Both the position numbers and the translations under genes were made by a program. This document shows positions 1 to 10,672 of a stretch of DNA of 32,000 nt, one piece after another; within the stretch, counting starts at the first letter, position 1, and each line of letters starts with the position of its first letter. Below the pieces are notes generated by a model that saw nothing but the letters and a program-made list of their open reading frames with translations, was not told the DNA's origin and did no database searches. Source of the DNA: Mycoplasma mycoides subsp. capri. GTDB taxonomy: Bacteria > Bacillota_I > Bacilli_A > Mycoplasmatales > Mycoplasmataceae. The stretch covers positions 930,001 to 962,000 of the forward strand of contig NZ_CP065581.1 of NCBI RefSeq assembly GCF_018389705.1, written 5' to 3'.

Positions 1-700
1 TTACTCATTCAAATGATTTTGCTCTTAAAACTTGTGAACGCATTTGATTTGCAATTCCTGTTCAAGAAGTAAAAGATAATGCAAATACCATAACTCAAAA
101 TGTAGGTTTAATAATAATAGTAATAGTAATCAAAATAATAATAGAAGGTACATTTGAAATAATTTTAATAATAAAAGTCATTAATTTATCAAATATACGA
201 AAATGACCCATCATAATTCCAATAAATAACCCAATAATTACTTGAATAAAAGTAGCTACAACAGATAAAGTTAATGAATATCTTAATCCATGTCATAATC
301 TAGCTCATAAATCTCTACCTAATGCATCAGTTCCTAAAATATGACCATTAGTAAAAAATGTTTCATTTCTATTTTCTACATCAATTATTAATGGATCTTT
401 TGTAGTTAAAGGAATAATTAAAGATAAAACAATTAAAGTTGCTAAAATAACAAATCCAAATACTCCAGCAAATGATCTTGAAAAACGATAAAAGAATTCT
501 ATAAAAGCATTTTTTTGATTATGCATTTTACTTGTTTCACTAAACTCTAATAAATTACCAACTAGTTGTCATTGTTGATGAGCTAACGGACGTAAAATTT
601 TATTTGGTGCTAAATCAGATCCGCTAATATTTGTTGGACTTAATTCTGCTCTTTTTTTACGATAATGTCAGTTTTTAAATAATTGAGGTAGTTTTATCAT
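1..700 (-). CDS. oppC: Oligopeptide ABC transporter permease OppC, 5' part (3' end lies beyond the left window edge)
   Basis: The minus frame is open from ATG 700..698 to position 1, interrupted only by TGA (checked codon by codon for 1-304 and 527-700). Track ORF 305-526 (FGFVILATLIVLSLIIPL...ILGTDALGRDL) looks like the N-terminal region of OppC/DppC-type permeases. The ATG lies 1 nt after the oppB stop. Confidence 0.85.
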
Positions 701-701
701 A

Positions 702-7700: not shown

Positions 7701-10672
7701 TCGCCGTTTTCATCTTTATACATGTATTTGACAACTTCATTATTCTTAGTAGAACTATTAACAGTTGGATTTAATGTACCTGAATAAAAATCGATTGCAT
7801 TAGCAATTCATAAATCAAAAGGGTTAAGTCATTTTTTGTCATTTTCACTTGTTAAGCCATTGTCTTTTTGACGCTCTTTAACAGCTTCTAATAATCCTGC
7901 AAAATCCTGTAAAAATCTTCTCTTTTTATTACTAAAAGCAGTTCTAATATTTGGATCTTCAATATTAACTCCTCAAATATCAGAATCATCTTCTAATCCT
8001 TTTTTATTAGATTTAGTATCAAAACTTATAGAACCATTTTTATCTTTTTTAGCAAAATTAAATGTTGCATATTCTCCATAATCTTTAATTGCACCAAACT
8101 GATCTAATAAACGTTTAGTTTCTAGTTCAATATGAGTACGAGCTTTTAAAAATAAATCAACAGCTTCTCTACTATAATAGTTATTAATGTTTGGTGTTGC
8201 TCCAGGAGTTAAAGCACTAATAAAAATTGGATCACTTCCTTTATTTCCTAGATCATGAGCACCATTTAAAGTAATATGATGTCCATATTCATGAGCTCCA
8301 ACAAATTTTAAAAAGTCAGTTGAAATACCTTTAAAGTTTTTATCTGACATTTTTAAAATCGCTCATAATCCAATACGATCATCTTTTGTAAATCCTAAAT
8401 ATTTACCATTTTCTAGCTTATATTGCATTACACCATTTTCATCAATAACTTTTTTAATATGTGGTCCTTCTAATCATTGTGCTGCGTATGGGACTTTTTC
8501 TAATAATTCATCAATTAGATCTTCATAAGCATCAGTATAAACATCAAAAGTTTTTTCAATTTCTCCTGTTATTGGATTTCTTAAGTCACTTTCTTCTTTT
8601 AATACACTAGGAGAAACCATTTTTTTATAACCTAAAACACTAAAAAAATCATTAGCTGCTCTAATTACACCGTGATTTATATCTGAATTTATAGATAAAT
8701 TAACAACTTTGTTTCCAAATTGTTTTTGTTGATCTGCTTTTTTATCTTTAAGTACTTCTTTTATTGTGATTAATAAATTTTTGTTCTCTTTTTTAACATT
8801 GGTGATATCTGCTTTAAAAACAAGTTTATTAATCTCATTTTGATCAGCATTAGGCTTTAATAATTTTCTTTTAGTAAGAATATCAACTAATTCGATTTTT
8901 GTTTTTGCAACAATTAAATCATTTTCATCTAATAATTGTTTATAACTTATCTTCTCACTAGAATTGTTAGAGTTGAAAGCGTGTTTTGAATAAACAAAAA
9001 AGTCTGTTATACCTTTATTTATATTTTCTCTATCAGAAATAAATTCATCGATATTATAAAAATCTCTTCAATTTAACTTAAGTTTATTACGATTTTCAAC
9101 TAGTGATTCTATTGAAATTAATTCAGGTAATGTATATGCAAAATCAACATTATAGTAATTTTGTTCTTTAAATTGTCTGTTTTTTGTTGATTGGTTAAGT
9201 GTTTGAAGTATTTGTGTTTCTAAATCAAACAAACTTTTTGAAACTTCTTTAAGAATTTTTGATTGTTCCAAACCATTTTTTAAATCGTTGTTATTGTTTA
9301 ACTTGCTTGATTTATCACTAATAGATTTAACTTCTTTTTCAAGTTCTTCAAATTGAGCATTTTTGTCTATTTTTGATTTTTTTAAGTCTTTAATTTGCGT
9401 TTCAATATTTTTTAATTTACTTTTAAATTCTTCAACTGCTTTTGAAAATTGCACATAATCTTTTAACGCAACAAAAGTTGTTTTTTTCTCATTATTAGTT
9501 TGTTCTGTTAAAACATCACCAAAAGCATTGTGAATATAATATTTTGTTTTATCATTAAATGTTATAAGTAATTTTTTATCTACAACTTTATTATTACCAT
9601 TAGGTTTAACTTGATCTTGTTTTACTTCAGCACTTTCAATAGTTTTTTCTTCTAAAATAACATTTTTAGGATCTATATTTTTAAATAAATTATATTTATC
9701 ATTTTTCTTATACTCCGATAATTTTATTTCTAATTTATTCTTAGCTTCATTTAAATTACTAGCTGGAATAACAAATAAATAATCAGATTTATCTTCTAGT
9801 CTTTTGCCTTCTAATTCAGAAAATGAGTTAGAAAAATTGTTATATCAATCTTTTTGTTTATAAGCAAATACTTTTTGACCTTTTAAAAAACTAACATTAG
9901 TAATTCCTCTAAAATATGATTTATCGATTGTTTGTTGGGATAAATTAGCAAGTGAGTTGTAGTTACTAATGTTAGTTAAAAAACTTTCTAGATCTTTTTT
10001 TGTTAAAACTTGTTGATTTAGTTTATAAGTTAATGATTCATGAGCATTACCTCTACCAGATAAACTAGAATAAATTGGTAAAGTTCCAAAAAAGGCATCT
10101 GGATAAAACTTAATAGTTGTTTCTTCTTTGTTTTTATTACTGTGAGCACCTAAAGTAATACTATTACCATTCATCTCAACACCTTTAACAATTGAAAATG
10201 ATTTTAAAGTAATAATTTCAGGTCCTCAAGAAACGTTTTTCATAAACCATTTAGTAAATTTGAAAAATTCTTGTGGACTAACTGCTTCTATGTATTGGTT
10301 ATAGAAATTAAATGAACCATATCTAATATTTAAATAAGGTAAGGCATGATATTTTTTATAGTACTGATCTAAATATTTATCAACACTTAATTCTTTTCCA
10401 TTGACTTTAACAACATCTTTTAATGGATCATAATCAACTTTAAATTTATTATTATGTATTTCTGAAAATTGAGTAACAGGTAAAGCATTTGGATCAATAA
10501 AAGCATTTTTAAATGATTCTTCATCACTAAAATTTTTACGACCTAATTTTTCAACAGATGTATTTGAATATTTATAAGCAGAACCTAGAATAGCAGTAGT
10601 TGCAGCAATAATTAAACTAGCAGATATAGCATATTTATGTCATACATATTTTTTAAAATTTATTTTAGGCAT
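4742..10672 (-). CDS. Giant membrane-anchored protein (1,976 aa) with PDxFFG motif, coiled-coil-like region and HExxH (HEYGHH) putative zinc-metalloprotease motif; function unknown
   Basis: Nine track ORFs between 4742 and 10174 all end on coordinates equal to 1 mod 3. I translated every gap (5000-5017, 5291-5728, 6152-6580, 6773-6958, 7256-7357, 7724-7972, 8351-9067, 9455-9844, 10175-10672) and found only TGA interruptions. ATG 10672 is preceded by an AAGGAG RBS. One hydrophobic helix (YAISASLIIAATTAILGSAY) maps to about 10574-10633. YPDAFFG is at 10085-10102 and FVGAHEYGHHITLNGAHD has HEYGH at 8279-8293. The stop is TAG at 4742-4744. Confidence 0.85.

Follow-up and report, generated by a model that had tools for sequence, protein, structure and literature searches.

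Mollicutes do not synthesize amino acids and depend on imported peptides, and the way in which transportable peptides are generated at the surface of these wall-less bacteria is poorly understood. In Lactococcus lactis, which is also an auxotroph, the cell-attached extracellular protease PrtP supplies oligopeptides to the binding protein OppA and the transporter OppBCDF. PrtP is a subtilisin-like serine protease (S8) that has a C-terminal anchor and is matured by PrtM; its gene is located outside the opp locus, in most cases on a plasmid. The same organism reportedly has an oppDFBCA-pepO operon, in which the gene for PepO, an M13 neutral endopeptidase with an HExxH motif, lies beside oppA; PepO is a cytoplasmic enzyme of about 70 kDa that acts after import and is readily recognised as a member of M13. 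Here we describe a locus from Mycoplasma mycoides subsp. capri in which the gene for a giant HExxH-containing protein of the PDxFFG family directly precedes oppA. The locus lies at the beginning of a 32,000-nucleotide stretch of the genome (contig NZ_CP065581.1, positions 930,001 to 962,000; hereafter the window), and our comparison of related loci shows that the conserved unit is a two-gene pair of a PDxFFG gene and an oppA gene.

The PDxFFG-OppA gene pair

The region has a G+C content of about 25%. When open reading frames (ORFs) are called with translation table 11, it appears as a mosaic of short ORFs in which all four genes of the unit are fragmented. We called ORFs with table 4, the Mollicute code, in which TGA specifies tryptophan (24 of the 25 tryptophan codons in the giant gene are TGA). 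This yields four tightly packed genes that run head to tail on the minus strand, including the giant gene (4742..10672, 1,976 aa, TAG stop), oppA (1775..4732, 985 aa), oppB (702..1775, 357 aa), and the start of oppC (2..700, the N-terminal 233 aa, cut by the window edge). The giant gene is preceded by a Shine-Dalgarno sequence, AAGGAG, located 8 nt before its ATG (10681..10686, minus strand). Its junction with oppA reads ...AAA TAG GAGATTATT ATG with a gap of 9 nt, and the Shine-Dalgarno core of oppA, AGGAG (4739..4743, minus strand), overlaps the TAG of the giant gene. The stop codon of oppA and the start codon of oppB overlap by 1 nt (TAATG), and oppB and oppC are separated by 1 nt (TAA T ATG). 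No terminator-like hairpin was found at any gene junction inside the unit by an AT-tolerant scan for hairpins followed by a T-tract. A preliminary description of this DNA had given the same head-to-tail order, the same three junctions, with the stop codon of the giant gene embedded in the ribosome-binding site of oppA, and the same absence of internal terminators, and our reading agrees with it on each of these points.

The giant protein is a full member of the PDxFFG family. Its residues 7-271 match the NCBIfam model NF012210 ("PDxFFG protein", 269 positions) with 345.5 bits and E = 2e-103, the cut-off of the model being 150. The motif takes the form PDAFFG (aa 191-196) and is present in nearly all relatives, the closest of which are PDxFFG proteins of Mycoplasma mycoides with 91% identity.

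The 985-aa protein encoded by the next gene has no Pfam or NCBIfam match, even at E <= 10. Each related locus has, next to its homologue of the giant gene on the downstream side, a gene whose product is a full-length homologue of this 985-aa protein. The window protein is 97% identical to OppA of M. mycoides subsp. mycoides. Its orthologues with 50-70% identity carry the Pfam domain SBP_bac_5 (PF00496). A profile of six members of this OppA family, compared with the Protein Data Bank (PDB), matched PrgZ (5e-17) and OppA 8are (6e-10), and then the OppA proteins of E. coli/Salmonella and MppA. Judged by these homologies, the 985-aa protein is a genuine OppA-type binding protein, approximately 400 residues larger than canonical OppA. 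Both permeases, OppB and OppC, contain BPD_transp_1 and have the OppB and OppC models as their respective best NCBIfam matches. The genes oppD and oppF lie outside the window; in the orthologous M. mycoides locus they come immediately after oppC, and nearly all related loci have them as well. In Ureaplasma miroungigenitalium and U. zalophigenitalium, the partner OppA reaches about 1,756 aa, almost twice the enlarged size, with the additional residues placed ahead of the conserved C-terminal segment.

We compared gene neighbourhoods first in Ureaplasma urealyticum, M. synoviae, M. bovis, and M. mycoides, and then in a scan of one genome per species that added 60 more loci, using table 4 throughout and classifying the neighbours by phmmer. 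In U. urealyticum and M. synoviae the genes are arranged as oppB-C-D-F-PDxFFG-oppA, and in M. bovis and M. mycoides as PDxFFG-oppA-B-C-D-F. Among these loci, the order with oppBCDF after the pair was observed in 44 loci and the order with oppBCDF before it in 14, and several species have two PDxFFG-OppA pairs per genome. Wherever downstream DNA was available (61 loci), the PDxFFG gene is followed in the same orientation by an OppA homologue, in all 61 cases; the two genes are directly adjacent in 58 of them. Altogether, the pairing was observed in 66 of 66 loci, with the PDxFFG gene located upstream of the OppA homologue immediately in 63 loci and almost immediately in three. The gaps between the two genes are mostly 7-18 nt, and a GGAG-type Shine-Dalgarno core occurs right past the stop codon in 51 of the 54 short junctions. 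The pairing spans Ureaplasma, Mycoplasmopsis, Mesomycoplasma, Metamycoplasma, the mycoides cluster, and divergent uncultured Mollicutes. Even the two most divergent members, found on low-G+C metagenomic contigs with TGA as a sense codon, are directly followed by an SBP_bac_5 gene.

The reverse test, starting from OppA loci, gave the same picture in M. fermentans, M. crocodyli, and M. caviae, each of which has a gene encoding PDxFFG/HEYGHH directly upstream. These three species, which had an OppA homologue but were missing from our lists of PDxFFG genes, had been considered as possible examples of OppA loci without a partner, and with the upstream gene present in 3/3 they were ruled out as such.

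Because the two genes are paired in every locus examined, the giant protein and OppA almost certainly work together in peptide uptake, and the operon linkage of the giant gene to opp is strongly supported. The preliminary description had placed the giant gene at the head of an opp operon and had suggested a comparison with other Mollicutes as a check. The giant gene does belong to the opp unit, as indicated by two layouts, a pair that stands alone (see below), and the recurrent Shine-Dalgarno junctions, and the adjacency is conserved across the Mollicute loci examined.

The pairwise distances of the proteins are consistent with this partnership, without being decisive. Using Spearman correlation of p-distances, we found that each of three regions of the PDxFFG protein correlates best with OppA (0.80), compared with 0.65-0.74 for OppB. 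The PDxFFG protein and OppA also evolve faster than the membrane and ATPase subunits. A sharper contrast obtained in a mirror-tree comparison with Pearson correlation and Kimura distances (r = 0.90 for OppA versus 0.3-0.5 for the other subunits) was discarded, as it was driven by three outlier loci (L050, L024, L030); outliers were suspected because the correlation between OppB and OppD had the implausible value of 0.07.

The mycoides cluster and M. agalactiae/M. bovis share the whole opp block, giant gene included, through horizontal transfer (62% identity). Sirand-Pugnet et al. (2007) argued that M. agalactiae had obtained its "type 3" opp locus from the mycoides cluster. In M. bovis (L003, 4657-8266) and M. 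agalactiae (L005), the PDxFFG-opp block adjoins a nusG-secE-rpmG-SpoU methylase-cysS cluster that is inverted with respect to the same cluster in the window (11112-14376). The sharing of these neighbours by a distant lineage may reflect the transfer of a larger block or a common insertion site.

Individual loci show further variation around the pair. On one metagenomic Mollicute contig (L065, 10001-16542), a divergent pair stands alone between ptsH/ptsI and gatCAB/ligA, without adjacent oppBCDF, and may work with a permease whose genes are located at another site. Members of the M. synoviae group have the PDxFFG gene separated from oppA by a small ORF of 115-122 aa (L002, 15918-16286; L024; L030), and L024 and L030 contain a further ORF of 670-774 aa, neither ORF having a family assignment. 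In U. urealyticum, a subtilisin-like Peptidase_S8 gene with the same orientation as the pair is located three genes further downstream (L001, 21469-22491).

Architecture of the giant protein and its HExxH motif

An exhaustive profile search of 1.84 billion cluster representatives collected 99 proteins related to the giant protein, all with one shared architecture consisting of an anchor, the PDxFFG motif, and the sequence LKY(V/T)xxHEYGH(H/M)xTL. The family appears to be closed, restricted to Mollicutes, and without a bridge to any known peptidase clan. The window protein begins with a single hydrophobic segment (10574..10633, minus strand, as are all positions in this section; aa ~14-33) that has the features of a signal-anchor without a lipobox. 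The N-terminal PDxFFG domain (9860..10654, aa 7-271) is the best-conserved part of the family; counted from behind the anchor, it forms a highly conserved membrane-proximal domain (aa ~35-270). A poorly conserved and partly coiled-coil-like linker or stalk follows (8636..9859), and leads to the conserved HEYGHH core domain (7283..8635, aa ~680-1130); the C-terminal region (4745..5995, aa ~1560-1976) is again strongly conserved. Across the family, the PDxFFG motif and HEYGH are between 142 and 2,016 aa apart, with a median of 513, a spread that includes the 1,357-aa insertion in M. agalactiae. The linker looks like a stalk of adjustable length that keeps the conserved head at a distance from the membrane.

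Neither the giant protein nor the window OppA has a lipobox cysteine. In fact, both are entirely devoid of cysteine and each has one N-terminal hydrophobic segment, so they cannot be lipoproteins. OppA orthologues of most other species do possess the lipobox cysteine, and in the window lineage an uncleaved N-terminal helix apparently takes the place of lipid as the anchor of OppA. The PDxFFG protein, being membrane-anchored, is presumably extracellular.

In M. fermentans (L067, 40-5694 and 6111-9968) and M. crocodyli (L068, 1466-3040 and 3702-9989), the PDxFFG gene is split in its linker into an N-terminal ORF with PDAFFG and a C-terminal ORF with HEYGHH. Family-like sequence stays open between the two ORFs in another frame, and the split could represent a frameshift, a pseudogene, phase variation, or a sequencing error.

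The HEYGH motif of the window protein (8279..8293) occupies aa 794-798. In an alignment of 95 non-redundant sequences, with identities down to approximately 25%, residues H794, E795, and H798 are 100% conserved, and the full HEYGH was present in 86 of the 88 relatives from the first pass. The invariant retention of E795 speaks in favour of a catalytic site rather than one in which the metal is structural only. Outside the motif, the same alignment has 100% conservation of D961, 99% of R845, and 96% of E894. Two of these residues are candidates for a third metal ligand: E894 (7991..7993), located in the motif E-x-x-x-D-(I/V)-(W/F)-G, could take this position, and D961 (7790..7792), in N-x-x-D-x-x-S-G-T-x-N-P, could do so alternatively. 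We presume that the giant protein binds a metal.

Leader region, transcription and other features of the window

The intergenic stretch in front of the giant gene (10673..11111, minus strand), which is its leader and promoter region, spans the 439 bp from the nusG stop at 11112 to the ATG of the giant gene at 10672. It contains a perfect 10-bp AT-rich stem with a 3-nt loop followed by a T-run (11064..11086, minus strand), located 26 nt past nusG, with a folding energy (dG) of -7.1 kcal/mol in a region that folds with z = -2.7. This hairpin is probably the intrinsic terminator of nusG, and would plausibly isolate the unit from upstream transcription. The preliminary description had noted a 439-bp spacer with a strong terminator; the spacer and a terminator-like hairpin are there, but at this folding energy "strong" was an overstatement. 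A scan for terminators with G+C stems missed everything, even the nusG terminator, because it demands G+C-rich stems. The leader matched no structured RNA family in Rfam, and the promoter scan was uninformative, with fewer sites than in shuffled sequences, since hexamers say little in AT-rich DNA. We infer that the giant gene and the opp genes are co-transcribed. Within the 3' end of oppA, approximately 80 nt before oppB, there is a 9-bp hairpin with dG of -6.7 and a weak T-rich tail (1854-1879, minus strand), which could act as an attenuator, so that less permease than OppA is expressed, or could be due to chance.

Two other features of the window were noted outside the opp unit. The 254-bp intergenic region between the divergent genes holA (minus strand) and uvrB (plus strand), at 24768-25021, lies in the lowest-G+C kilobase of the window (24001-25000, G+C content 0.15), coincides with a switch of gene strand and of the sign of GC skew, and is probably a divergent promoter region. 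Between the gene for the S-component of an energy-coupling factor (ECF) transporter and dnaB, a 437-aa predicted lipoprotein is encoded at 15454-16767 (minus strand), with a signal peptide ending in ...TISCST and no NCBIfam match.

Proposed role and relation to known systems

PDxFFG proteins are mentioned in the literature in studies of M. synoviae and M. bovis, both of which call their function unknown. The M. synoviae homologue was the most upregulated gene upon contact with chicken cells, with its role left to be determined, and the M. bovis homologue was among the proteins immunogenic in cattle; both observations bear on the expression and surface location of the family in other species. 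Beside the "type 3" opp locus, Sirand-Pugnet et al. (2007) reported a "conserved hypothetical protein" with a 1,357-aa insertion and proposed no function for it, and hypothetical proteins were drawn inside opp-II in the 2018 genome paper on M. synoviae MS-H. We found neither a proposed function nor a family-wide OppA linkage of PDxFFG proteins in the searchable literature, and the invariance of HExxH and the pairing with OppA are absent from the description of NF012210, the family name being a motif label only. The statement in the preliminary description that an HExxH protein of this size had not been described in an Opp system needs qualification: the family had already been named, the gene had been drawn, and lactococcal pepO is an earlier case of an HExxH peptidase gene in an opp operon, while no function or family-wide linkage was found in the searchable literature.

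Two lines of genetic work bear on this locus. In M. agalactiae, oppB and oppC mutants of the transferred locus showed no systemic spread in sheep, and a MAG0390 transposon mutant was among those included in the sheep screen. In JCVI-syn1.0, nusG is MMSYN1_0840; a deletion that removed it also took out the next six genes (0841-0846), and nusG by itself was enough to restore normal growth. By synteny with the orthologous M. mycoides locus, MMSYN1_0841-0846 should correspond to the PDxFFG gene and oppABCDF.

The reading that we favour, although we hold it to be no better than evenly balanced, is a surface module for digestion, binding, and import, in which a zinc-dependent PDxFFG peptidase feeds the enlarged OppA and OppBCDF. 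The giant protein would be held in the membrane by one N-terminal helix and exposed at the surface, with a conserved membrane-proximal domain, a very variable stalk, and a conserved head containing the putative H-E-x-x-H metal or catalytic site. It would be produced from one transcript with OppA and would act as the dedicated extracellular partner of this binding protein. Proteins of the host or medium, or long peptides, would be cut to oligopeptides at the cell surface, captured by the adjacent OppA, and imported by OppBCDF. Proteolysis and the hand-over of its products to OppA are the presumed steps of this scheme. In a more far-reaching form, which is possible yet quite tentative, PDxFFG proteins would constitute an unrecognised peptidase family with a new fold and an HExxH site in which Asp961 or Glu894 supplies the third ligand. 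Joined outside the cell to a specialised, enlarged OppA in an obligate complex, they would hand their products over directly, and the two genes would represent a cassette restricted to Mollicutes and able to move between species.

Several results weigh against the digestion and import module. The giant protein matched no peptidase family in Pfam or NCBIfam, even in permissive searches, and neither did 19 isolated core domains in Pfam; single members of this core set gave Zn_peptidase_2 at E = 0.16 and a Met-zincin domain of unknown function (DUF) at E = 0.97. No sequence relative of the giant protein was found in PDB. At E <= 10, the core profile retrieved three PDB sequences only, two of which were the catalytic domain of MMP-2 aligned on its zinc helix (E = 0.1-0.3), a motif-level resemblance that is not significant. 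We also used structure models made from the 91%-identical M. mycoides orthologue. The AlphaFold2 model of aa 661-1859 (1,199 residues) has a predicted local distance difference test (pLDDT) score of 79.5 and a predicted template modelling (pTM) score of 0.71, and it places the motif in a long helix; Foldseek searches of PDB with this model gave no neighbour at E <= 0.001, the best match having E = 0.68. The model of the N-terminal domain (pLDDT 76) gave only faint NTF2-like resemblances, none of them significant. As Foldseek yields no significant neighbour for these confident models, a zincin fold is not demonstrated.

Other points of the same kind concern the locus itself. The co-evolution signal is only modestly specific for OppA. 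With the MMSYN1_0165 OppB model, which has a cut-off of 350 bits, the window OppB reaches a score of only 106, indicating that there is at least one other opp paralogue in the genome. The gene is split within the linker in the two species mentioned above. Internal promoters may exist in AT-rich DNA, so that co-transcription has the standing of an inference. Finally, since nusG alone restored the growth of the 0840-0846 deletion, the locus identified by synteny in JCVI-syn1.0 appears to be dispensable in rich SP-4 medium. Taken together, the preliminary proposal of a surface proteolysis and peptide-import module is well founded in its import part, through the linkage to opp, whereas its protease part is putative. 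The proposal that the giant protein is a protease gains from the invariant HExxH and the conserved acidic candidates and suffers from the missing match to a peptidase family, PDB relative, or fold; the label is a reasonable reading of the HExxH motif by itself.

The same evidence can be arranged differently. The giant protein may be a real surface metalloprotease with a main task other than feeding Opp, such as the processing or shedding of OppA and surface proteins or the cleavage of host defence or matrix proteins, with the opp operon providing mainly co-expression. In other bacteria, large zinc proteases at the surface have host proteins as substrates, and the invariant HExxH, the immunogenicity of the homologues and their induction on contact with host cells, and the dispensability of the inferred JCVI-syn1.0 locus in rich medium would all suit such an enzyme. 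We nevertheless consider this account unlikely, as co-expression alone is insufficient to explain an OppA pairing that is invariant and extends to a pair located apart from oppBCDF; within it, a role of the giant protein in the maturation of OppA could still be envisaged. A second account dispenses with proteolysis altogether and makes the PDxFFG protein an accessory of OppA, that is a scaffold, a tether, or a substrate-capture arm at OppBC, in which the HExxH metal is structural or ligand-binding. It draws on the specificity of the pairing for OppA and not for oppBCDF, on the membrane-proximal N-terminal domain being the most conserved part, on the failure to detect a protease fold or family, and on the approximately 400 additional residues of the partner OppA proteins, whose insertions could be docking surfaces. 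The catalytic-type glutamate kept in 100% of 95 divergent sequences would be needless in a purely structural site, however, and the 14-fold variation in stalk length is hard to reconcile with a rigid docking geometry, and for these reasons the accessory role seems rather improbable. Lastly, the adjacency might be meaningless, and the giant gene might encode a surface antigen or adhesin that has nothing to do with opp and is its neighbour by chance. In its hypervariable linker and its immunogenicity, the protein does recall variable surface antigens. Such a coincidence is hardly credible for a pair that occurs in all 66 loci, has the Shine-Dalgarno junction in nearly all short ones, and survives operon rearrangement, duplication, and horizontal transfer.

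If the digestion and import module is correct, a conserved immunogenic giant protein, found from Ureaplasma to the mycoides cluster, gains a testable role as the obligate partner of OppA. It would represent a new family of surface peptidases, would explain the large size of these OppA proteins, and would make the two proteins a joint target for vaccines or drugs against major veterinary and human pathogens. JCVI-syn1.0 offers a direct test of the system, as the inferred locus can be deleted there without loss of viability in rich medium.

Among the described systems, PrtP-Opp of L. lactis is similar in its proposed logic, with a cell-attached protease supplying the oligopeptide transporter of an auxotroph. 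The giant protein differs from PrtP in having HExxH and no Peptidase_S8 domain detectable by Pfam, in its N-terminal anchor, and in its obligate adjacency to oppA. The oppDFBCA-pepO operon offers a precedent for an HExxH peptidase gene within an opp operon. In contrast to PepO, the PDxFFG protein has a size of about 220 kDa, is membrane-anchored, is encoded upstream of oppA, and matches no peptidase family. The MIB-MIP system of Mollicutes is also a tandem cassette that combines a surface binding protein with a surface protease acting on the bound target. MIP, however, is a serine protease, MIB binds immunoglobulin, the system is not known to be linked to transport, and it has no known sequence relationship to the PDxFFG protein. 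The streptococcal proteins ZmpA/B/C (M26) share with the giant protein the surface attachment, the HExxH motif, a length of about 1,900 aa, and a Gram-positive lineage. They differ in that their M26 domains are recognised by Pfam, which found no such domain in the giant protein, and in that they are not known to be linked to Opp and have host proteins as targets.

A parallel on the side of the binding protein is P100/OppA of Mycoplasma hominis (Henrich et al. 1999, as cited by Sirand-Pugnet et al.), an unusually large multifunctional surface OppA in a Mollicute Opp system, for which no PDxFFG partner is reported. Sirand-Pugnet et al. (2007) found no sequence similarity between the P100-like M. 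agalactiae OppA, MAG1000, and MAG0380, the OppA of the PDxFFG-linked locus. Viewed by analogy, the PDxFFG system resembles PrtP-Opp, opp-pepO, and MIB-MIP in its arrangement and is a member of none of them.

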